Notes: generated from the letters alone by a model not told the origin. A stretch of 15,153 nt of DNA from Candidatus Bathyarchaeia archaeon (GCA_038883795.1 JAVZLK010000038.1:1-15153), one strand, 5' to 3'. Positions 270 to 14,999 are shown, numbered from the stretch's first letter. Made by a program: numbers and translations.

Positions 270-344
270 GCTCCGGTAGTATAGCCCGGTCAAGTATTCC
301 GGCCTTTCGAGCCGGAGACGCGGGTCCGAATCCCGCCCGGAGCA
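270..344 (+). tRNA. tRNA-Glu(TTC), intronless, CCA not encoded; probable integration target
   Basis: Cloverleaf read by hand: acceptor GCTCCGG(270-276)/CCGGAGC(337-343), anticodon stem CCGGC/GCCGG with loop CT-TTC-GA (anticodon 306-308), T-stem GCGGG/CCCGC with loop TCCGAAT, discriminator A344. Confidence 0.96.
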
Positions 345-351
345 CTCCAAA

Positions 352-407
352 TCTGCTTGCTTCAGCAGAAAGAAGCCAGAAATGGGCTTTTTTGCCCACT
401 GGCTTTT
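352..407 (+). terminator. Two adjacent stem-loops after the tRNA; possible terminator or processing structure
   Basis: TCTGCT(352-357)/AGCAGA(364-369), then AAGCCAG-AAA-TGGGC-TTTTTT-GCCCA-CTGGCTT (373-405) with a T6 loop and trailing Ts. Confidence 0.4.
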
Positions 408-451
408 GGGACCGTCCTGGGACCGTCCCAGCTATGTTGGGAGGACCGTCC
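407..451 (+). repeat. 11-bp tandem repeat TGGGACCGTCC x2 plus a third GGACCGTCC core
   Basis: Copies at 407-417 and 418-428; third core at 443-451, immediately before ATG 453. Confidence 0.8.
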
Positions 452-452
452 T

Positions 453-1466
453 ATGCACAAGGATACGATAGACGAGTTGAAAAGGCGTGTGGATGAGCAG
501 TGTAGGGCTTTGGGTTCTTTAGCTTCAAGCTTTGAGGGCGAAGATAGGCTTGGAGAGTTGGTGAGGCGTGTGGAGAAGCCTTGTGAAGCCTTAAGCTCTT
601 TAGCTGCTGGTTTTTCCTTTGAAGGCTTTGTTTTAAGTTGGCCTGAAACCAGGGAGCTGTTTCTGCAGTATGTCGAGTTTAAGCGTTATGAGCCTGCTAA
701 TGCAAGGAATATGATTGGCTATTTGGATAGGTTTGTTAAGCAACCTATTAAAGAGCCTTTGGATGTTATGCGAATTTTTTCGCCTTTAAGTGTGGGGCAG
801 AGGCATCACTTGAATCGTGCTATGAGGGCTTGGTTTAAATGCTTAGAGATTAACAAGCCTGATGGGCGGTTTAAAGAGTTTCTTGACAGTTTGAGGAAGG
901 CTATTCCGAAGGCTGAAGTGGGCATAGACATTAAGGTTCCAGAGGAAGAGCAGATAATTTCTGATTTGAAGCGATTAGTTTCGGAGCCTTTGCCTTTGCA
1001 GGCGGAGTATAACTTGCTTTTGGATTCTGGTTTGAGGCTTGTGGAAGTTGTTAGGCTTCTGAACGATTTTCCAGAGGCTGAACGACTTCAAGGTTTTTAT
1101 CGTTGCTCAGTTGGGCTTTTCAGAGGGTCAAAACAAGCGTATTACTGCTACATGACAGAATACACCTACCAGTTGATAAAGAAGTTAAATGAAAAGGTTT
1201 CAGAAATTAGGCTGAAAAGAAGGCATCAACTCCACAAATATACGAGGGCAAAGTATCTGAGGAAGTTTGCCAACGACATGATGACAAGCGAGAAGCTGAA
1301 CATTCCGGAAAGCGTTGCAGACTTCATTCAGGGCAGGGTTCCAAAAAGCATAGGGGCTAAGCATTACATGAAGCTTAAACGCAAAGCAGACCAATACTAC
1401 CCAAGATATGCACAGTATGTGACGGAATTAAGGCAAAAAGCAAACGTGTTCTTCAACACTCTTTAA
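453..1466 (+). CDS. SSV1-type archaeal tyrosine integrase (possibly the Int(C) part of a split gene)
   Basis: Motifs DSGLRLVE (Arg I), AKYLRKF (KxxR), ADFIQGR and KHY (catalytic Tyr). Adjacent to a tRNA. ATG 453 has GGGAGG at 439-444. The frame is open upstream to 285; the ORF track start is TTG 357. Confidence 0.9.
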   Translation: MHKDTIDELKRRVDEQCRALGSLASSFEGEDRLGELVRRVEKPCEALSSLAAGFSFEGFVLSWPETRELFLQYVEFKRYEPANARNMIGYLDRFVKQPIKEPLDVMRIFSPLSVGQRHHLNRAMRAWFKCLEINKPDGRFKEFLDSLRKAIPKAEVGIDIKVPEEEQIISDLKRLVSEPLPLQAEYNLLLDSGLRLVEVVRLLNDFPEAERLQGFYRCSVGLFRGSKQAYYCYMTEYTYQLIKKLNEKVSEIRLKRRHQLHKYTRAKYLRKFANDMMTSEKLNIPESVADFIQGRVPKSIGAKHYMKLKRKADQYYPRYAQYVTELRQKANVFFNTL

Positions 1467-2484: not shown

Positions 2485-2686
2485 TATGGCTGAAATAACT
2501 GTTCTAACCAGAGCCTCGACCAAAAGCAACAGATCGTTAAGAACTACAGTTCCAATCGGAATAGTTAGACAATTTAACCTTGTGGACGGAGATAGGTTGA
2601 TCTGGGAACTTCGAGCTGAGGAAGGCAAACTTGTAATAGTGTTGAGACCCGAAAAACAAAACGCGAAAGGTTCTGTAGTTACTTGA
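2477..2686 (+). CDS. AbrB/MazE/SpoVT-type DNA-binding protein (alternative start ATG 2486)
   Basis: SLRTTVPIGIVRQFNLVDGDRLIWE fits the swapped-hairpin pattern. TTGA overlap with the MTase gene. Confidence 0.8.
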   Translation: MTNMAEITVLTRASTKSNRSLRTTVPIGIVRQFNLVDGDRLIWELRAEEGKLVIVLRPEKQNAKGSVVT

Positions 2687-4278
2687 TTGAAATAGAGGCG
2701 AAGGTCAATATGCTAAGCGAAAAACATGACATTACACATTCTATTCTACTAATAGATAACAGCATATCCCCAGAAAGTCTCCTCAAACCTTTTAGAGGGA
2801 CGGTTAAGGTTACTAGTTTTCCTAATTTGAGCAACTATAACACGATTGCTATTTACGACGCTCCAGCATTTTTGCCATTTTGGTTTAATAAATTCAAGCT
2901 GTGGAAATTTGATTTTAAGTATCATATCGTTGTATACTTTGATCCCTTAAATGAATTTAAGGCTAACAATTTGCTTGTATCGCATGTTGGCCTTTTGCTG
3001 ATGTCTAAAAAATTTGCACCAAATAAAGTAAGAACACCTCATCAATACTGTTCATTTTGTAAAAAACCCCTTAAAGATTGGGGAGGTAAAACCCATCTTA
3101 TGCATCCTGAGGGATCTCTTATCTCTGATGTTTGGAAGGATATGCCTTTAACTTACAAGGATATAGTTGGAAGAAGTTGCCCGCCTATCGTGGTTAAAAG
3201 ATTAGAGAGAATGTTTGGTAAAGTTGATGTAATTAAAGGTGAAAAAGAAATATTACACAATGAAACTCAGAATATTTGTGAGGTAAACAATTTTCCTGCA
3301 CATGTGAAGAATATAGTTTTGAAAGGCGATGCAACAGAGATTTTGAAAGGAATTCCTTCAAACTCAGTCGACATGATCTTTGTAGACCCTCCTTATAATC
3401 TGGGGAAAAAATATCTAAATTATGAAGATGAAAGAAAAGATTATGTCGAGTGGTCTCTTAAATGGTTGAATGAATGTTTTAAAATTTTGAAACCAAATGG
3501 TAGCTTGTTTCTTTTAAACATCCCGAAATGGGCACACGAAATCTTAGTTGAATTGCTCCCTGATTATCATTTAATTAGATGGATTGTTTGGGATGAAACT
3601 GCTGAACCTATGGGAAAACTGATTCCTGCTCATTATGCACTGTTATGGCTTTCCAAAACTAGTGATGTTAAAACTTATCCATTGAAAGAGGACCAAGATT
3701 CCATGAGTTATTGCTTAAGAATAAAATGCGCTAAAGTGAGAAGGAGTTTAGGGATAAGAGATAAGATAAGCGTGAGGGATGTAAGGTGGGACATTCACAG
3801 AATTAAACATCGCCATAAAAGGTTCAAGTTTCACCCAGTTCAGTTGCCGGAGAAGCTTTTACGTTTTTTGATTGAGTTAACCACGAGCGAGGATGATATA
3901 GTTTTAGATCCGATGGTGGGAACTGGAACAACAGTGGTTGTTGCAAAAAAATTAAAAAGAGCATTTGTAGGCATCGACATCGACCCCACTTATGTAGAAA
4001 TTACAAACAAAAGGCTGGCGGGTGAGCTCGAAGAAATTTTAGAAACATCAAGCAAAAATAATCTGAGAGATAGAAAATTTGGAATTACCAAAAAATGGGT
4101 GCAAGTTGAAATGGAGAAATTTGCAAAAAATTTTGGAAAACTTCCAACAATAGATGAAGCAAGTTTATATCTAGGAGTGAGTAAAGACAAGCTAAGTGAG
4201 ATTTTTCCAAACTGGAGTAAAGCACTGAAACTTGCAAAATTGACGCTACAAACAGATCTGAACCGATATGCTAATTAG
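2683..4278 (+). CDS. Site-specific DNA methyltransferase (N4-C/N6-A, beta class) with a degenerate N-terminal MTase-like repeat and a C-terminal helical domain
   Basis: DMIFVDPPYN (motif IV) precedes HPVQLP and VLDPMVGTGTT (motif I variant), then GIDIDPTY. This is the beta motif order. Confidence 0.92.
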   Translation: MIEIEAKVNMLSEKHDITHSILLIDNSISPESLLKPFRGTVKVTSFPNLSNYNTIAIYDAPAFLPFWFNKFKLWKFDFKYHIVVYFDPLNEFKANNLLVSHVGLLLMSKKFAPNKVRTPHQYCSFCKKPLKDWGGKTHLMHPEGSLISDVWKDMPLTYKDIVGRSCPPIVVKRLERMFGKVDVIKGEKEILHNETQNICEVNNFPAHVKNIVLKGDATEILKGIPSNSVDMIFVDPPYNLGKKYLNYEDERKDYVEWSLKWLNECFKILKPNGSLFLLNIPKWAHEILVELLPDYHLIRWIVWDETAEPMGKLIPAHYALLWLSKTSDVKTYPLKEDQDSMSYCLRIKCAKVRRSLGIRDKISVRDVRWDIHRIKHRHKRFKFHPVQLPEKLLRFLIELTTSEDDIVLDPMVGTGTTVVVAKKLKRAFVGIDIDPTYVEITNKRLAGELEEILETSSKNNLRDRKFGITKKWVQVEMEKFAKNFGKLPTIDEASLYLGVSKDKLSEIFPNWSKALKLAKLTLQTDLNRYAN

Positions 4279-4314
4279 GTTTTCATTTAGATACTGAAAT
4301 AAGGGATTGTAACG

Positions 4315-5412
4315 TTGTGGCATAAAGAAAATTCTGAAAAAATTAGGGAAGATTACATTAGCAAAAACACGTTTCTTCTGACACCTTCTTTATTGAGGGA
4401 ATATTTGGCCCAAGTAGGGCTTATTAAAAAGAAGGTATTCAAAGAAGAAAGCTCCTCAATAAGAAATGATTTAGAGCAGTTCCTGGATTTTTTGGGTCAA
4501 AACCCGCCGGAAAATGATTTTTTAAAAACATTTGCTGAGAATCAAATTTTTGTTGACTTATTTGTAACGATCGCGTTAGAATCTTATGAAGTTCTTTGTA
4601 GAATTCTCATGCTGCTGGATAGGCATCACGAAGAAAACAAAATAAAAGATAACGAATTAAAAGAACTCATAACCAAAGTAAAGCAGGATAGATGTAAATT
4701 CCTTCCCAAAACAAGTATAGATCTAAAAAAGAAACTCAATGAGAAAAAATCGGTTAAGAATTTGCTGGTTTTTCTTCTCTATAAAATGTTCTCAGAAGAT
4801 TTTGGGAAATACTATAATGCGAACATATCTAATGGAGAACTTTATGAATTAATTGGAAAATCCATAACTCGTTTTTGTGAGAATATAATTACCCTAAAAA
4901 TGCTTCCCGAATTAATTAGAAATCATCCTGGAGTAAAATCGCAGGTATTAGACTTGTTACAGTTAATATATTCATCAAAAAGTAAAGGTATGCTAAAAGC
5001 TAAAGAAGGAATAAAATACGAAGAAGTTTTGAAGGAAGTCTTAGATTTTCACGGAATTCCTCATGAGCTTGAAGAAAAAAATGAAGAAGATGAAAATGAA
5101 GAGACGAGTAAACAAACCAGAAAATGGGACATATATATCCCTAACAAATCTAATCCCAAAATCGTCATTGAAGTGATGTATGTGATTACAACTTCAAGCG
5201 GTATGACCAACAAAAGAAAGGTGATAGTCGCTGAATCAGAAAAGGGACTCATGAAAATATTTGCACTGATGGACGGCGCAGGATGGATAGCAAGGTGGAG
5301 TGATGCTAAGAAAATTTTGGAAGCTGATGTGTATACGTTCACTTTTCACAAAGAGAGTTTAGAAAAAGCCATCAACACTGTAAAAAATCAATTGAACAAT
5401 TCGGCGACGTAA
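4315..5412 (+). CDS. Putative type II restriction endonuclease with a DpnII-like PD-(D/E)XK C-terminal domain
   Basis: RKWDIYIP...IVIEVMY..TTSSGMT...LMDGAGW resembles the DpnII/MboI-like catalytic region. Lies directly downstream of the MTase. Confidence 0.72.
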   Translation: MWHKENSEKIREDYISKNTFLLTPSLLREYLAQVGLIKKKVFKEESSSIRNDLEQFLDFLGQNPPENDFLKTFAENQIFVDLFVTIALESYEVLCRILMLLDRHHEENKIKDNELKELITKVKQDRCKFLPKTSIDLKKKLNEKKSVKNLLVFLLYKMFSEDFGKYYNANISNGELYELIGKSITRFCENIITLKMLPELIRNHPGVKSQVLDLLQLIYSSKSKGMLKAKEGIKYEEVLKEVLDFHGIPHELEEKNEEDENEETSKQTRKWDIYIPNKSNPKIVIEVMYVITTSSGMTNKRKVIVAESEKGLMKIFALMDGAGWIARWSDAKKILEADVYTFTFHKESLEKAINTVKNQLNNSAT

Positions 5413-8869: not shown

Positions 8870-9514
8870 TTGGCTGTTGACTATGCATTATTATCTACTA
8901 CTTCTACCGCTCTTGGGCGTGTGAGAGGCTTTACGATAACGCTTCTTTACATGTTGTTTGATGGTGGTGGACGCTGCTGCGATTTGGCTGAAAGGAGCGG
9001 AAAAAGCCAGAATTATGTTTGGCGGTATTTGAAGAACATGGAAAGGTATGGTTTAGCCTTGAAAAATGGCGATTTTTGGTTTTTGACTGATTCTGGGGTT
9101 GAATTTGTTAAGTATTTGGATTTCGTATATAATAATATAATAGATTATCGAAAGAAAGTAAAAAGAAAATCAAAAGAAAATAGAAAGAAAATAGAAACTA
9201 ACCAGCCAAAAACAACAAAACAAATCCCCATTAGTTTGTGGCTACAAAATTCAGGTTTAGACAGCGTGGAAAAGGAAGTAGTAGAAGTGTTGCTAAAGCA
9301 TTACAATGGAACAGGCTCAAAATTTATCCTCGTCAAAGACCAATATGAGCTATCAGAAAAGCTAAAAGCAAACCCAAGCGAGCTTCTTGAAGCCCTAAAA
9401 AACCTTAGACAAGATAACATAATCTACTTATACCGCTCAGACATAGAGGGATATTGGAAAGTAGGGCTGAAAGCAAACTTCATAAAAATTCTAGAAAACG
9501 CAGCTAAACATTAA
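8870..9514 (+). CDS. Double winged-helix protein; candidate replication initiator
   Basis: N-terminal wHTH (DLAERSGKSQNYVWRYLKNMERYGLA...WFLTDSG), basic linker, C-terminal wHTH (ELSEKLKANPSELLEALKNLRQDNIIY). AGGTGA RBS. The initiator role is inferred from the internal repeats and the adjacent helicase. Confidence 0.65.
   Translation: MAVDYALLSTTSTALGRVRGFTITLLYMLFDGGGRCCDLAERSGKSQNYVWRYLKNMERYGLALKNGDFWFLTDSGVEFVKYLDFVYNNIIDYRKKVKRKSKENRKKIETNQPKTTKQIPISLWLQNSGLDSVEKEVVEVLLKHYNGTGSKFILVKDQYELSEKLKANPSELLEALKNLRQDNIIYLYRSDIEGYWKVGLKANFIKILENAAKH
9126..9197 (+). repeat. AT-rich tract plus four 11-bp tandem repeats (iteron-like); candidate replication origin
   Basis: TATATAATAATATAATAGATTAT (9126-9148), then AAAGAAAGTAA / AAAGAAAATCA / AAAGAAAATAG / AAAGAAAATAG (9151-9194). 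Confidence 0.7.
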
Positions 9515-9612
9515 TGTTGAAAACGTTTTAAATGAATAATTGCAAGGTCATTCTTCCGAAAAGGAATTTAGGAAATTCCACTAGAAAAGATAAGTGGAGA
9601 GGCGTTGAATCT

Positions 9613-9852
9613 GTGAAGTTGAAAATAGAAAATGATAAGTTTTACGTCTTGGAAGCTGGAGGTGAAAAATGGATTTATAGCCATGAAGATGAAGCAATAA
9701 GTTCATTAAAAGAAATGCTTTCTATAGACAAAGAGTTGGATGAGAAAAATGTTAGCATACTAGAGGTGGAAACAAGAGGAGAAAAGTGGCAGGTCAAACA
9801 GCTTTCATGGTCAAAAATAGCCCTTAAATTACTTAGAGGAGAGAAACAATAA
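9613..9852 (+). CDS. Small hypothetical protein, first gene of the ParB-rSAM-TcmP cassette
   Basis: GTG 9613 preceded by GGAGAGG (9596-9602); ORF-track start is 9532. TAATG coupling to parB. Confidence 0.65.
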   Translation: MKLKIENDKFYVLEAGGEKWIYSHEDEAISSLKEMLSIDKELDEKNVSILEVETRGEKWQVKQLSWSKIALKLLRGEKQ

Positions 9853-10784
9853 TGGAAGAAATAATAAAAATAATATCTATAGATAAGATACGGCCAAGTC
9901 CGTTTCAGCCAAGGGAAACATTTGCCAAAAAGGAAATTGAAGAATTAGCAGACTCAATTAAGGGAAGCGGCTTAATTCAACCTATAATTGTAAGGAAAAA
10001 AGGTGAAACATATGAGATTATAGCTGGAGAGAGAAGGTGGAGGGCCTATCAATACGCTGGTTTAAAAGAGATACCGGCAATAGTCAAGGATGCTGATGAT
10101 ATAGAGGCAAGAGAGCTAAGTTTAGTGGAAAATTGGCATCGTTTGGCCTTAGAGCCTCATGAGGCAGAAAGGTTCATTGTCGGGCTGTATAAAGATGGAA
10201 TCCGGCTGGGAAGATATACGTCTGTAGAAGACATGGCACGGAAAACGGGGATATCGCGGCAGACTCTACAGGAAATTCTTTTGGCTCATAAGGAAAGGGA
10301 AGAATTGGGTGCCACCGGTGGCACCCTAACCTATACTGACTTCAGGGAAACGAGAATAATCAAAGATCAACCAGAGCTAAGAAAACAAATTCTGATGCTA
10401 AGAGAAAAGGGAAAACTATCGCGTGATGATTTGAGAGAGTTCTCAAAAACGATTGTAGAGGTATCGGAACCCGTTAGAAAAGCTCTGCTTAAAGAGGATT
10501 CCAAATTAACACCTGAGGAAGCAAGACTTATTGATGTTGAGCTACTGAATCCTGAGGAGAAGATAAAAGCAATAGAGATGCTTGAAAGAGAAAAATCGTC
10601 TGACCGCGTTAGATCTTTAATACAAGTCATAAGAGAAATAGAGGAAAAAAGACAAAAAGAAATAGAGGTTATTAAGGAAGTTGACACTGGAGATGTATGG
10701 ATATGCCCCGTCTGCAATAAAAAGTTTCATCTAATTCATGTGGAGCCAGGGAAAGCACATAGATTTGAGGAAGTAGTTGAATAA
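9852..10784 (+). CDS. parB: ParB/Spo0J-family protein with HTH and a C-terminal Cys/His zinc-finger-like tail
   Basis: IRPSPFQPR, LIQPIIVR, IIAGERRWRA (GxxRxxA), ENWHRLAL; HTH SVEDMARKTGISRQTLQEIL; tail CPVC...H...H. Confidence 0.88.
   Translation: MEEIIKIISIDKIRPSPFQPRETFAKKEIEELADSIKGSGLIQPIIVRKKGETYEIIAGERRWRAYQYAGLKEIPAIVKDADDIEARELSLVENWHRLALEPHEAERFIVGLYKDGIRLGRYTSVEDMARKTGISRQTLQEILLAHKEREELGATGGTLTYTDFRETRIIKDQPELRKQILMLREKGKLSRDDLREFSKTIVEVSEPVRKALLKEDSKLTPEEARLIDVELLNPEEKIKAIEMLEREKSSDRVRSLIQVIREIEEKRQKEIEVIKEVDTGDVWICPVCNKKFHLIHVEPGKAHRFEEVVE
10307..10326. promoter_or_regulatory. Perfect 20-bp palindrome inside the first parB; candidate parS-like site
   Basis: GGGTGCCACCGGTGGCACCC equals its own reverse complement and is a GC-rich island in an A-rich gene. 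Confidence 0.7.
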
Positions 10785-11710
10785 TGCCTTTTGTAGCTCA
10801 AAAAATCCTTACTCCTTCCCAACTTAAGCTCAGTAGGGCATATGGCACGAAGGAATATCCATCCATATTATACTACTTCAGAAAAACACCGAAATCTATA
10901 GTGTGCCCACATTTTTGGGAATTAAGATGGGCTTATGGTTGTCCATTTGATTGTGCATATTGCTATCTGCAAGGAACTTTTAGAGGGAAAAAAGAACCGC
11001 GGTATGTGCCTTTAGAACACGTATTTTTAGCTCTTGAAGAGGCTTTTAACGATGGAAACCTTGAACCATCCATATTTAACAGCGGTGAATTAGCTGATTC
11101 ACTGATGAATCCAAAAATAATGGAAAAAATAGCAGACAAGTTTGAGGAGCAAAAAAAACATAAGTTGCTTCTCTTAACGAAATCTGATAATGTAGACTTT
11201 TTGGTTAAAAAACCCAGAAAACAAACCATCGCAAGTTTCAGCTTAAATGCCCGTAAAGTCTGGGAGTTATGGGAGCACAGAACACCATCGCCTGAGAGGA
11301 GAATAAAAGCAGCGAAATCTTTAATGGAAGCCGGATATGAGGTTAGAGTTAGAATAGACCCTATTTTTCCGATAGAAAATTGGCAGATACATTATGAGGA
11401 TTTAATTTACTCTATGCTTTCTAATTTTTCATGCGATCCCGAAAGGATAACCTTAGGCACACCTAGGGGCCTACAGAAAACGCTTCTATTTTCAAAGGAT
11501 AACTCGTGGACTAAATGGTTTACAGAGTCGTCGGGATGGGGAAAGAAAATAGCTGCCTCAACTAGAAAAGAAATATACTTTTTCTTACTCAATAAACTCA
11601 CTGCCTATGGGTTCGATAGATCAAAAATTGCCATTTGTAAAGAAACTGAAACGATGTGGAGCGAACTAGGGTTAAACAAAAATGATTGCAAGTGCAACTG
11701 CGTGAGGTAA
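10784..11710 (+). CDS. Radical SAM protein of the spore photoproduct lyase (SPL)-like family
   Basis: YGCPFDCAYCYLQ (CxxxCxxC), SGELADSL, LLTKS, FSLN, RIDPIFP are SPL-like. TAATG coupling to parB. Confidence 0.85.
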   Translation: MPFVAQKILTPSQLKLSRAYGTKEYPSILYYFRKTPKSIVCPHFWELRWAYGCPFDCAYCYLQGTFRGKKEPRYVPLEHVFLALEEAFNDGNLEPSIFNSGELADSLMNPKIMEKIADKFEEQKKHKLLLLTKSDNVDFLVKKPRKQTIASFSLNARKVWELWEHRTPSPERRIKAAKSLMEAGYEVRVRIDPIFPIENWQIHYEDLIYSMLSNFSCDPERITLGTPRGLQKTLLFSKDNSWTKWFTESSGWGKKIAASTRKEIYFFLLNKLTAYGFDRSKIAICKETETMWSELGLNKNDCKCNCVR

Positions 11711-11715
11711 TTTCG

Positions 11716-12669
11716 ATGTGGCAATGTATGCATTGCCGATGTAAAAAGCCGGAACGTCCCGATACTTGTCCAGCATGTGGGTTGGTTCAAGCAGGAGAAG
11801 GGACACAGGATAAATATGAAATTTTGGAGAGTTATTGTCATCCTTTAAGCTTGATCATGCGAAATCATGGTTTCTCACACTACTTTATTGACGCATGCGC
11901 AGGAAGCGGCTATGTTCAAGCTTTTGAAGAAAATAAACTTATAAAAGGATCCCCAATAATTATGGCAGAAACAAGAGAATGGGTTGAAAACACAATAAAA
12001 GATAAGACTAAGACTCCGTCCGTTGAGTGCATTTTCATAGAGATTAACCAAAAAACAAGGGAATTGTTGGAAAAATGGACTAATCGCTACCAAGATTTTA
12101 TAAAAGTAATACAAGGGGATTGTAACACTGAACTAGAAAAAATCCTAAATAAGTTTGACTCTGATGCCCCTAAGCCGTTTACTTTCATTTATGTAGACCC
12201 ATTTGGTTTGGGAAGCCCAGTAATTCAAAAAAGAACCGTGGAACGGATACTTGAAAGACAATATACTGAACTTTTCATGCATTTTTCGTGGTGGGGCGTT
12301 GATAGGTCGGCAGGGTATTTTTTAAGAAACCACAACAGCCCCGATCCAACAGTTAGAAAAACTGCAAAAACTATAGGGGAAACTTTGGATATCTTTCTAG
12401 ACTTAAAAGAGTGGCCAGAAATATGGCAAAAATACTCGCGAAATCCCAAAAAGAGAAGAGATGAAATCCTAAAATATTATTTAGTAAGCTTAGAAAAATA
12501 CTTTAAACATGTAGAATACATCGAAATACCCGTTGGGTCTGAGTATCCGAGCTATTATTTAATATTTACCACAAGAAATGAAACCGGAAGAAAAATAATG
12601 AAACATATAATGGAAAGAAAGAGAAGAAGAGGGGCAGAATCGTTAGAGAAGTGGTTTGGAAGTGTCTGA
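11716..12669 (+). CDS. tcmP: TcmP-like (three-Cys-motif partner) SAM-dependent methyltransferase-fold protein with an N-terminal zinc ribbon
   Basis: TQDKYEILESY, FIDACAGSG, FIEIN, GDCN, FIYVDPFG, TELFMHF, YYLIFTT..ETG..IMK match TcmP. N-terminus WQCMHC...CPACG. ATG 11716 has a GAGGT RBS; ORF-track start is 11686. Confidence 0.82.
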   Translation: MWQCMHCRCKKPERPDTCPACGLVQAGEGTQDKYEILESYCHPLSLIMRNHGFSHYFIDACAGSGYVQAFEENKLIKGSPIIMAETREWVENTIKDKTKTPSVECIFIEINQKTRELLEKWTNRYQDFIKVIQGDCNTELEKILNKFDSDAPKPFTFIYVDPFGLGSPVIQKRTVERILERQYTELFMHFSWWGVDRSAGYFLRNHNSPDPTVRKTAKTIGETLDIFLDLKEWPEIWQKYSRNPKKRRDEILKYYLVSLEKYFKHVEYIEIPVGSEYPSYYLIFTTRNETGRKIMKHIMERKRRRGAESLEKWFGSV

Positions 12670-12741
12670 ACTGTCATCATATTCTGCTTTAAAGACTTTA
12701 GTTTATAGAATTTTAAAAACCTGTTAATTCCTCATGCAACA

Positions 12742-13473
12742 TCACAAACTGTATATCAATTCCGCTGTCCCAGGAACCTTGGAAGCTAAAGCACCGATGT
12801 CTTTGCTGAGTTTTTTTAAAGCTTCTTTGGTTCTATCATTGTATTGCAGAAGCATTTTGCATTCTAACCAAAGTATTAAATCCACGGTCTTTCGCGCGAG
12901 AGTCAATATCTCATCAGATTTTTCCGGTATATACTGCAAATTTGGCCAAGTCAATTTTTCGTCAAGGCTTTTCCTAGAAATATGGACGTATTTGCAGAGG
13001 TCCGAAAACAATTCCTGAAGCTTTTCTGCAGGAAGCCCCAATCCCTCAAATATCCGTTTGCGAGGAAATTCCGTTCTCCTTTCGTCAAGTAAGGCCAGCC
13101 ACAATTCAAATTTATCTAAATCCATCTCCACTTCAATAAACTCACCACTTAGCAATGACGGCTTAATACAAGCAGCAGCGCCAGCCAGATTAGCTTCGTA
13201 TAGCCAGCGAAGCGCCCTTGCAGCTGAATGATAAGCTCCTTGAAAAAGATTTACCAAAAATTCTAAATAGGTTCTTAATGAAAGACTGCATACATAGTAG
13301 GGTATACCGGATTGCCCTTCTAACATAATATCTTGAGCAATGTCGGTTAATACAAATAAATAATTGAGATACTTAATCGCTTCGTCGCATTCGTCCATCT
13401 TTTCTTTATAAGTCAATTCAAATATTCCATTTATCCTCTCAAGGAGACGATTTAACTCATGTAACGTTTCCAT
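12742..13473 (-). CDS. Alpha-helical hypothetical protein, possibly DUF5677/HEPN-like
   Basis: GAYHSAARALRWLYE and LFSDLCKYVH resemble the R..E and late S/C..vH pattern of that group. ATG 13473 has GAGGTG upstream; ORF-track start is 13503. Confidence 0.5.
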   Translation of the reverse strand: METLHELNRLLERINGIFELTYKEKMDECDEAIKYLNYLFVLTDIAQDIMLEGQSGIPYYVCSLSLRTYLEFLVNLFQGAYHSAARALRWLYEANLAGAAACIKPSLLSGEFIEVEMDLDKFELWLALLDERRTEFPRKRIFEGLGLPAEKLQELFSDLCKYVHISRKSLDEKLTWPNLQYIPEKSDEILTLARKTVDLILWLECKMLLQYNDRTKEALKKLSKDIGALASKVPGTAELIYSL

Positions 13474-13760
13474 TAATAACACCTCGGAATAAATATTTTT
13501 CATAAAAACTTAAGATTTCGGTTTCATCAACTTTTAGTAAGTTTTAGCTGTGAACTTTTCCGTTACTAAACTAAGTTTTTCCGCGTATTGTAGGAATGCT
13601 ATGCGTAGGGTTTCGCTTTCGCTTTGTCCCAGTTTCTGGCATATTCTGTCTAGTAGTTCTTTGTGTTGTGGGCTTAAAACAACCCTTACAATATGTTTCT
13701 TTGCCACCTTTTGACCATCCTGTTGTATAATTTAATTTATGTTTTGAAACATATATTTTT

Positions 13761-14999
13761 ATGGGGCAGAGCAACGAAAGGCGGGTTTGGACTCTGCCCT
13801 TGGAAACAACAGACCAACATACTCATTCTGAACGAGACATTGAGTATACTTTTCTTAGTTTAGAGCTTCTTCAGCCTCCGGAATTGGGCATACGTGTTGA
13901 TACATTGCGGAAGATTGACGAGTTAGCTGAATCCGTCGTAGTTAATGGCGTATTAGAGCCGTTAATTGTTAGGCCTTCTAAAGAGGTTGGCAGATATGAG
14001 GTTGTCTGTGGGCTGCGAAGATTTTTGGCGGCTGAAAAAGCCGGGTTGAAAACTGTTCCATGCATAGTGAAGGAAATTGCTGACCGCGAAGCCATGGAAG
14101 CCATGCTGGTCGAGAACATAGAACGCGAAGACTTGTCAGACTATGAGAGGGGCAGATGGCTCAAGCTCATAATAGAGAAGTTTCCAGACACATATGGCAA
14201 CATGGACGAGTTTGCTCGTAGGTTCGGATTCGTCACACACGCCCAAGTTTCGCGTCTAATTTCCCACTTTGAGTTCATGGAAGAATTAAAGAAAAAGCTT
14301 CCAACAATGTTCGTTCCACATGGAACGAGTATACCTGAAGGCATCACCCGAGAGATTCGGCGTGCTCCAAGCGAGTGTCAAACTAAACTTGTTGAGTATG
14401 TGGTGAAGCATGAGCGTCATGGTAAGGATGTCGCTGGCATAGTTAATGTTCTGTTAGAAACACCAGAGGATTTACGCGAGAAAGTGCTGACCGTTTTGAT
14501 TGAGAAGGATTTGAATGCGCGGGAAACTACGGAGTTGCTTAAGGTGTTATCAGCCCATAAGGTTATAGTGAAGGCTGAAGAGAAGCTGGAAAAAAAGAAG
14601 CCTCCAGGGGGAACTTCCAAAAAGGGACTTGCGACACAAGCGGAAACCGAACAAGCGGTCAACATGCCCGAAACTCAGGCTCCGCCCAAACATGAGGAGG
14701 CTAAACCGTTTAAGCCAAGCTTGGACCAACTAAGAAGTATCGCCGAAGAAATCAAGGCTAAAAGGCTGGAACAGAAGTATGACAAAGCTGGGCAAATATA
14801 CATTTTCCTTTCCAACTATTATCCGCAACAGCTTATTGATGCCTTCACAGACCGCGTTAAGCTTGAAGGGCTCACGGAAGAAAAGGCAGTAGCTATGATG
14901 AAGGAAATTGTGGCCGAAATGTGCGACCGCCTTACAAACTATGGCAGAAAACATGAAGTGTTAGACGAGATATTTGAAACTGTGGTTAAGTGGCGTTGA
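13761..14999 (+). CDS. parB: Second ParB/Spo0J-family protein with HTH and a long C-terminal extension
   Basis: GVLEPLIVRP, YEVVCGLRRFLAA, ENIEREDLS; HTH NMDEFARRFGFVTHAQVSRLI; low-complexity linker followed by a helical C-terminal domain. Confidence 0.88.
   Translation: MGQSNERRVWTLPLETTDQHTHSERDIEYTFLSLELLQPPELGIRVDTLRKIDELAESVVVNGVLEPLIVRPSKEVGRYEVVCGLRRFLAAEKAGLKTVPCIVKEIADREAMEAMLVENIEREDLSDYERGRWLKLIIEKFPDTYGNMDEFARRFGFVTHAQVSRLISHFEFMEELKKKLPTMFVPHGTSIPEGITREIRRAPSECQTKLVEYVVKHERHGKDVAGIVNVLLETPEDLREKVLTVLIEKDLNARETTELLKVLSAHKVIVKAEEKLEKKKPPGGTSKKGLATQAETEQAVNMPETQAPPKHEEAKPFKPSLDQLRSIAEEIKAKRLEQKYDKAGQIYIFLSNYYPQQLIDAFTDRVKLEGLTEEKAVAMMKEIVAEMCDRLTNYGRKHEVLDEIFETVVKWR
14311..14328. 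promoter_or_regulatory. parS-like inverted repeat inside the second parB
   Basis: TCGTTCCA-CA-TGGAACGA has 8-bp perfect arms. Its core GTTCCACATGGAAC differs at one base from the bacterial parS core GTTCCACGTGGAAC. Confidence 0.75.

Follow-up and report, generated by a model that had tools for sequence, protein, structure and literature searches.

The window analysed here (the whole stretch of DNA, 15,153 nt) is the complete contig C38 (GCA_038883795.1, JAVZLK010000038.1:1-15153) in the assembly of a Candidatus Bathyarchaeia archaeon, which comprises 2,182,157 bases in 81 contigs and is 87% complete. It carries two parB genes on the plus strand, each of which harbours a palindrome within its coding sequence. 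The product of the first, ParB1 (9852..10784; 310 amino acids), matches PF02195 with 113.7 bits (cut-off 26.3) and TIGR00180 with 117.4 bits (cut-off 58.45); the second, ParB2 (13761..14999; an open reading frame (ORF) of 412 amino acids, 399 in its database form P0121), matches the same two families with 74.7 and 90.5 bits, respectively. An earlier reading of the window, made from the sequence alone (the sequence-only reading), had called both genes parB, and these scores, all above the cut-offs, bear it out.

Both proteins carry the nucleotide-binding motifs GxxRxxA and ENxxR, which we take to be the cytidine triphosphate (CTP)-box motifs of ParB: GERRWRA (residue 59) and ENWHR (residue 93) in ParB1, and GLRRFLA (residue 84) and ENIER (residue 118) in ParB2. 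ParB1 consists of an N-terminal CTPase-type domain, a helix-turn-helix (HTH) and a C-terminal beta-rich CxxC module, and its sequence alignment runs through the HTH of Thermus thermophilus Spo0J. In the AlphaFold2 model (mean predicted local distance difference test score, 83.1), helices are found at residues 125-132 and 136-152, of which the latter is the recognition helix (codons at 10257..10307, plus strand), and the first 200 residues match structures of ParB, Noc and KorB. With Foldseek, target-normalised template modelling (TM) scores of 0.68-0.69 were obtained for Noc and ParB-parS chains, and of 0.62 (on the target) for the KorB chain 8qa9_B. As modelled, ParB1 thus has the canonical ParB/Noc/KorB-type fold with CTP-box motifs. 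Its C-terminus, where canonical ParB has a dimerisation domain, is modelled as beta strands (275-307) with the CxxC, a section of which none is covered by the PDB matches. For ParB2, the PDB alignments end near residue 158, and Pfam gave no HTH match.

Palindrome 1, GGGTGCCACCGGTGGCACCC (10307..10326), is a perfect 10+10 dyad of 20 bp, exactly at the place and with the coding content first claimed for it: it is in frame with the ORF 9852-10784, where codons 153-158 specify G-A-T-G-G-T. In the model, these codons fall in the loop 153-160, immediately after the recognition helix. The loop had been described as lying directly before the next helix, which is correct, and 10 to 16 residues after the recognition helix, which is loose, as it follows that helix directly. 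Palindrome 1 is the only one in the window without a spacer that has arms of at least 9 nt, and also the longest; when the window was simulated 300 times with a first-order Markov model, 10 runs produced one of its length. A search of the assembly allowing as many as three mismatches gave no other copy. No further copies of its half-site occur in the window, where the single 9-mer with one mismatch (at 2086) is a chance-level count. The conserved bacterial parS consensus, a 16-mer that occurs unaltered in the bacterial loci L082 and L103, has no match in palindrome 1. We also observed that palindrome 1 holds two hexamers of a form presumed to be that of the BanI site; these are not kept in the palindromes of relatives.

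Palindrome 2, TCGTTCCA-CA-TGGAACGA (14311-14328), consists of 8-bp arms around a non-symmetric CA. It is in frame with the ORF 13761-14999 and lies within codons 184-189 (F-V-P-H-G-T), again precisely where it had been placed. The additional claim that no comparable GC-rich palindrome exists elsewhere applies to palindrome 1 only: palindrome 2 has an unexceptional 50% of G+C, and two other palindromes with 8-bp arms occur in the window, at 2439-2457 and 2945-2962. Simulated windows contain a mean of 0.78 such palindromes (arms of at least 8 nt, spacer 0 or 2), with at least one present in 139 of 300. Palindrome 2 is enclosed in a wider dyad of 26 bp (dyad 2; 14307..14332), the centre of which (between 14319 and 14320) splits a His codon, CAT, behind its first base. 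The dyad symmetry of a parS-type duplex site is complete in palindrome 1, whereas in dyad 2 only 10 of the 13 arm positions are paired; the putative ParB1 site is intact, and that of ParB2 is interrupted by a single base in the middle. We rejected palindrome 2 as a near-canonical bacterial parS, since its three mismatches to the 16-mer are at chance level (29 of 200 shuffles give at least two such matches), and retain the resemblance as no more than a lead.

Relatives of ParB1 that could be inspected as DNA are few. No close relative was found in genome or viral contigs with the single protein as query. An order-level genome search yielded only four distant relatives in 401 genomes (L123-L126; 36-39% identity), and a family-specific alignment of C-terminal halves detected a fifth, L127, as the only locus in genome contigs and none on viral contigs. 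L127 shares the gene order of the window, with a small ORF, ParB, a 315-amino-acid ORF and a fourth ORF of TcmP-like size. In its aligned loop, it carries a different perfect 18-mer, ATGACCGCTAGCGGTCAT, coding for M-T-A-S-G-H. Perfect palindromes were also found in the loops of L125 (20-mer, GATGCCACCGCGGTGGCATC), L126 (18-mer, AAGTGTCCATGGACACTT) and L124 (14-mer, AAGGGCATGCCCTT). In all, four of the five ParB1-type relatives have a perfect loop palindrome, 93-98 residues after GERRWRA, and all of these differ in sequence. The ParB of L125 has another C-terminus and other downstream genes, yet the 20-bp palindrome is there, and its half-site shares the core TGCCACC with palindrome 1; in that genome (G233), a DDE transposase fragment (2972-3505) adjoins the ParB1-type gene.

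Among the 29 loci homologous to ParB2 that we examined, the sole close relative, L013 (51% identity), contains a perfect 26-bp palindrome, AACATTAGAACTCGAGTTCTAATGTT, whose centre follows base 1 of loop codon six and coincides to the nucleotide with that of dyad 2. The other 28 are of the ParB-HTH-ASCH type considered below; one of them, L030, has a 7+1+7 repeat nearby. A class-level search of 401 genomes brought no new ParB2 relative. The recurrence of palindromes at the aligned codon position, set beforehand as a check by the sequence-only reading, is therefore seen in homologues of both proteins, in each case with a different sequence. The palindromes of ParB1, L125 and L013 are each unique in their own genome. 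Furthermore, the symmetry runs through the very centre in all six perfect cases (ACCGGT, GCTAGC, CCGCGG, CCATGG, GCATGC and CTCGAG).

Controls came in part from a metagenome scan with an alignment that responded to the ParB motif in general; the 80 ParB loci it yielded are unrelated and were used for this purpose only. A palindrome without spacer and with arms of at least 7 nt, within the 72 nt that follow the HTH, occurs in six of 113 ParB ORFs, namely ParB1, L013 and L124-L127, and in one (L188) of 74 ParB ORFs from viral contigs. The viral instance, which we mention for its own sake, is a perfect 18-bp palindrome, CTTTAGATCGATCTAAAG, at 2982-2999 of L188 (also at 1432-1449 of L189), inside a phage gene for a 320-amino-acid ParB; it is located some 100 residues after GERRWRA, a few codons downstream of the archaeal position. 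The neighbour of that ParB gene was judged GTP-cyclohydrolase-like from its translation alone.

A perfect in-frame palindrome forces codon pairs to be reverse complements of one another, and the loop peptides of the wider families can be screened for this property. In the ParB1 family, where the loop measures four to nine residues, the loops include G-A-T-G-G-T, G-I-T-G-D-T, G-G-T-G-A-T, G-V-T-G-D-T, G-A-T-R-G-T, G-V-T-S-D-T, L-L-T-G-K-R, I-R-T-G-A-N and M-S-S-T-T-H, with the reverse-complement pairs A/G, G/A, I/D, V/D, V/N, L/K, T/S, T/R, M/H and R/A. With a script operating on peptides, we determined for each possible centre the longest perfect palindrome permitted by any choice of codons. 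Among 120 ParB1 homologues listed, 75 permit loop arms of at least 9 nt (57 among the first 81), as opposed to 0.32% of all other centres in these proteins. In the ParB2 family, arms of at least 14 nt are permitted at a shared centre in 17 of 33 proteins, and 0.05% of the other centres permit arms of at least 13 nt; the shared centre is an Arg codon, flanked by the pairs P/G, T/V or A/A. Permitted palindromes are realised in the five homologous loci in which a perfect palindrome is present in the DNA (L013 and L124-L127).

The second check, covariation of the palindrome with residues of the HTH, gave one HTH-region residue in each family. For ParB1, we used 31 relatives with a six-residue loop and a tree built without the tested columns. 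Residue 136, the first of the recognition helix (CGG, Arg, 10257-10259, plus strand; aligned with an Arg in the Spo0J HTH), is Arg if the first base of loop codon 154 is G (Ala, Val, Gly) and Gln if that base is A (Ile). Residue 136 and the codon-154 base each change nine times on the tree; over independent pairs taken from well-supported branches, a mean of 5.3 out of 6 change the same way and none the opposite way (median sign-test p, 0.06). When 277 column traits were compared as partners of residue 136, 154-Ile came first, and the intervening columns are weaker. At the DNA level, where the base in question is at position 6 from the centre, Arg is found with G in ParB1 and Gln with A in L127. 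One protein, P0012, combines Arg with Phe and represents neither base state.

In the ParB2 family, Arg165 (14253..14255, plus strand; HTH region Q-V-S-R-L-I) goes with the P..G pair, i.e., with CC..GG beside the dyad centre, such that Arg versus non-Arg co-varies with these bases. The two traits undergo nine and eight changes on the tree, a mean of 4.6 of 6 independent pairs change the same way with none opposite, and the loop columns are the top partners among 609 traits. When the two families are pooled, there are 9-10 agreements and no disagreement (sign test, about 0.002-0.004).

From these sequence comparisons, we consider it fairly probable that a cognate, parS-like loading site is built into each gene and has evolved in place. 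Each of the two orphan ParB genes would carry an in-frame dyad recognised by its own product, a loading site for a ParB-type CTP clamp. The codons that house it specify a surface loop which tolerates change and immediately follows the recognition helix. Inherited with the gene, the site would have diverged in place by symmetric, compensatory base changes that keep the dyad, so that loop residues have to change in pairs. Half-site changes would be accompanied by changes in the HTH region, with Arg going with G and Gln with A. ParB would bind at the site, load and slide with CTP; candidate roles of the clamp include maintenance of the element, KorB-like silencing, or recruitment of the proteins encoded nearby, a radical S-adenosylmethionine (SAM) protein and one of the TcmP family. 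The idea that each gene has its own site is partly supported, by the recurrence and the covariation that it predicted; the second site is a weakened copy, and the break at the centre of dyad 2 means that two working systems on the element are not assured.

A number of observations weigh against an embedded loading site. At L123, the ParB gene is intact and has no palindrome at the loop, the 28 more distant ParB2 homologues have none at the centre of dyad 2, and half-sites are very different among relatives. The 120 and 33 database proteins are known as peptides only, in which palindromes are permitted, not observed. Palindrome 2, by itself, is at chance level. Its centre codon (14319-14321) specifies His, where 30 of 33 relatives have Arg; this one-base difference breaks the symmetry of the dyad centre, and the ParB2 site of the element may be decaying or merely tolerated. 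The covariation has exceptions (P0027, Gln with Val; P0151, Arg with T-R-V), sign tests reach only p of about 0.06 per family, and the trees are quick ones with many open forks, on which kin are not independent. P0026 (T-G) differs in its dyad centre from P0028 and P0033 (T-S), although the recognition helices are nearly identical. Moreover, only 17-22 codons separate the loop from the HTH residue, and a swapped segment could move both together, and in the ParB2 family, the upstream columns 137/138 co-vary too; on sequence grounds, the pattern would fit the swapping of modules as well as stepwise co-evolution. As to partition, the ParA-binding motif [LFI]G[KR]G[LFI], in the form defined in PMC12704722, is absent from both proteins, and no member of a ParA-type family was found among the 19 ORFs scanned, the contig ending at 15153 with a gene beyond it being possible. 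Without ParA gene and ParA-binding motif, a role in partition is not supported.

Another dimeric protein could be the one that binds the palindrome, such as the product of the small ORF upstream of ParB1, the winged-helix protein encoded at 8870-9514 or a host factor, with parB offering a tolerant place to lodge its site. The small ORF is kept with ParB in the window and in L127, the winged-helix gene is just upstream, and symmetry that reaches the centre suits any dimeric DNA binder. We nevertheless judge this unlikely: the half-site co-varies with the HTH region of ParB itself in two families, and ParB2-type genes have a palindrome without the neighbours of the ParB1 cassette.

We see only a slim chance that the palindromes are targets of the neighbouring enzymes, be it the spore-photoproduct-lyase-like radical SAM protein, TcmP or a restriction-modification pair, for which ParB would be no more than the carrier. 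The order ParB, radical SAM, TcmP-type is kept in the window, L124, L126 and L127, L123 lacks both the downstream radical SAM gene and the palindrome, and the window encodes a methylase and a weak BanI-like endonuclease match. This explanation is countered by L125, which has a palindrome but other neighbours, by palindromes that are too different among relatives for one enzyme specificity, and by the ParB2-type palindromes, which occur without the cassette. Since the latter are found in other neighbourhoods, the enzyme-target explanation and that of a different binder both fit less well than recognition by ParB.

An mRNA hairpin or a DNA cruciform acting on translation, mRNA stability or replication would also account for compensatory changes, which are typical of paired structures, and the 20-mer can form a stem of 8 bp closed by a loop of 4 nt (the 60-nt stretch around it has a minimum free energy of -17.8 kcal/mol). 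Such a fold is unremarkable for a sequence of this composition (z -1.44; equalled in 16 of 200 shuffles), the central four to six bases are symmetric in six of six perfect cases though a hairpin loop needs no symmetry, and an RNA element is not expected to co-vary with an HTH residue; we regard such a structure as quite improbable.

That the palindromes are functionless scars, left by insertion or repair in a loop of variable length (four to nine residues), with covariation due to linkage and to traits shared by kin, appears highly improbable, even with palindrome 2 alone being at chance level, given that perfect symmetry is kept across many sequences in two protein families, that the feature is almost confined to the ParB1 and ParB2 clades among 113 and 74 control ParB genes, and that decay, not paired substitution, is to be expected of scars.

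An embedded loading site has a precedent in Bacillus subtilis, where parS-359 lies within parB (spo0J) (PMC4442127); a parS inside parB is therefore not new in principle. The likeness is that a ParB loading site, putative in our case, is situated inside its own parB gene. The B. subtilis site follows the parS consensus conserved among bacteria, is one of several copies on the chromosome, and acts together with ParA and SMC, unlike the putative sites in the archaeal genes, which are single-copy, family-specific and different in each relative; these occur in mobile elements of archaea that lack ParA, always in the loop that succeeds the recognition helix. In B. subtilis parB, parS-359 is positioned further downstream.

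The proposed pairing of residue and base also has a counterpart. Residue 136 is presumably equivalent to R173 of Caulobacter ParB, as judged indirectly, through the T. thermophilus Spo0J alignment; the ParB2 search aligns the Caulobacter chain only as far as the start of the HTH. According to PMC7383237, R173, which opens the recognition helix, bonds guanine 1 of parS, and in Noc, a Gln at the equivalent place reads an adenine of the Noc site. The Arg-G/Gln-A pattern of ParB1 residue 136 at half-site position 6 matches this published ParB/Noc rule. The differences are that the base concerned is at another position of the half-site, that the switch recurs often among close relatives, and that the site is located in the gene.

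RK2 KorB and other orphan ParB-CTPase clamps on mobile elements have the ParB fold and an HTH and act on palindromic operators with no ParA partner, which is how the proteins described here would work. KorB has many operator copies, which are found in promoters, unlike the single putative site per genome that the archaeal clamp genes themselves contain. According to PMC12704722, mobile elements and archaea often carry orphan ParB homologues, and archaea generally lack a chromosomal ParABS. The archaeal ParB-HTH-ASCH proteins (L014-L041) are distant ParB2 homologues (30-40% identity; PF02195, PF17762 and PF04266). They occur in 24 of 25 genomes of the family f6, with a conserved loop, G-V-P-R-E-L-G-K-L-D-Y, and no palindrome at that place; the type probably represents a ParB-like protein of the chromosome that serves another purpose. 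Phrase searches of the literature, covering listings and the passages cited here, led to the B. subtilis case but not to any account of palindromes co-evolving inside a gene, nor to one of a single-copy site that keeps one codon position in the loop behind the recognition helix, diverges by paired substitutions which dictate the loop residues, and is present in ParA-less archaeal elements, in two ParB families and twice on one element.

The cognate site of an orphan ParB-like clamp normally has to be found by chromatin immunoprecipitation sequencing (ChIP-seq) or by systematic evolution of ligands by exponential enrichment (SELEX). Were it written at a fixed codon position, it could be read from the sequence for whole families of elements in uncultured archaea, and each such gene in a metagenome would report its own site, amounting to a natural library of protein-DNA specificity pairs. 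The natural variants with paired HTH changes would constitute a data set on the evolution of DNA-binding specificity and could extend the Arg-G, Gln-A rule of ParB and Noc. Paired base changes would quickly create new, mutually orthogonal pairs of ParB and site, by which several elements, or two systems on one element, could coexist in a cell without cross-talk, suggesting how co-resident mobile elements might avoid incompatibility. A coding loop with amino acids dictated by the symmetry of a DNA site would also be a clear example of overlapping constraints. The broader notion of self-specifying modules of clamp and site, in which a short piece of DNA encodes the reader and also contains the sequence to be read, we put forward as a tentative one that is rather doubtful at present.

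The gene directly 5' of ParB1 is the small ORF (9532..9852, plus strand; 106 amino acids), the counterpart of which is found 5' of ParB in L127 (59-325; 52% identity over 75 residues, E 9e-30). It has no family match in Pfam, NCBIfam or PADLOC, and it may encode a partner protein of ParB1. A 78-amino-acid ORF in L125 was considered as another relative and rejected, as BLASTP yields no alignment. On the 3' side of ParB1, a radical SAM protein of the spore-photoproduct-lyase-like family (10784..11710, plus strand; PF20903, 66.9 bits, with PF04055 also matching) is followed by the last gene of the cassette, for a TcmP-family protein, i.e., a three-Cys-motif partner protein (11686..12669, plus strand; TIGR04474, 133 bits versus a cut-off of 53). 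The two genes are adjacent, as befits a TcmP and radical SAM cassette. Profile matches place the same radical SAM family 3' of ParB in L124 and L126, and the 315-amino-acid ORF 3' of ParB in L127 was read as radical SAM from its translation alone. The TcmP-family protein also matches the PADLOC candidate-defence models PDC-M41A and PDC-M30A (best E 2e-19), on account of which the cassette of ParB, radical SAM and TcmP may be a module for defence or DNA modification. The literature matches listed include two papers that name the TcmP family, and no functional study of it was among them.

Near the start of the window, a tRNA-Glu gene (TTC; 270..345, plus strand, predicted with ARAGORN) adjoins the gene for an archaeal phage-type integrase (357..1466, plus strand; PF16795, 101.6 bits versus a cut-off of 27). 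This tRNA gene is the likely integration target, and the ParB genes consequently sit in an integrated element. A direct repeat that could serve as its attL/attR pair was sought on the contig and none was found; the far end of the element is thus not on the contig. Downstream of the integrase, other genes of the mobile-element type encode an XPB-like helicase and the winged-helix protein mentioned above. A second radical SAM protein (1527-2297), with weak viperin-like and MoaA-like matches, adjoins the integrase. The end of a small MazE/AbrB-type ORF (2477-2686) overlaps by four bases with the methylase ORF; within 2683-5412, the gene for this N6/N4 DNA methylase (PF01555, 146 bits) precedes the ORF that gave the BanI-like endonuclease match, which is weak and below threshold (26 bits versus a cut-off of 28).

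The names of homologues in public sources refer to Bathyarchaeia and other archaea. Parts of the window are contained in six hot-spring metagenome runs; among four runs compared, only X2 has a contig that spans palindrome 1, 99% alike and with 10307-10326 unchanged, and no diversity is gained from it. In the assembly itself, seven ParB_N matches exceed the Pfam cut-off, including ParB1 and ParB2. The other five are on contigs C21, C46, C39, C48 and C19 (loci L006-L010); L009, the sole one of these to pass the HTH-motif filter, has no long palindrome in the loop region. Seven ParB_N matches in one genome suggest the presence of several ParB-bearing elements.

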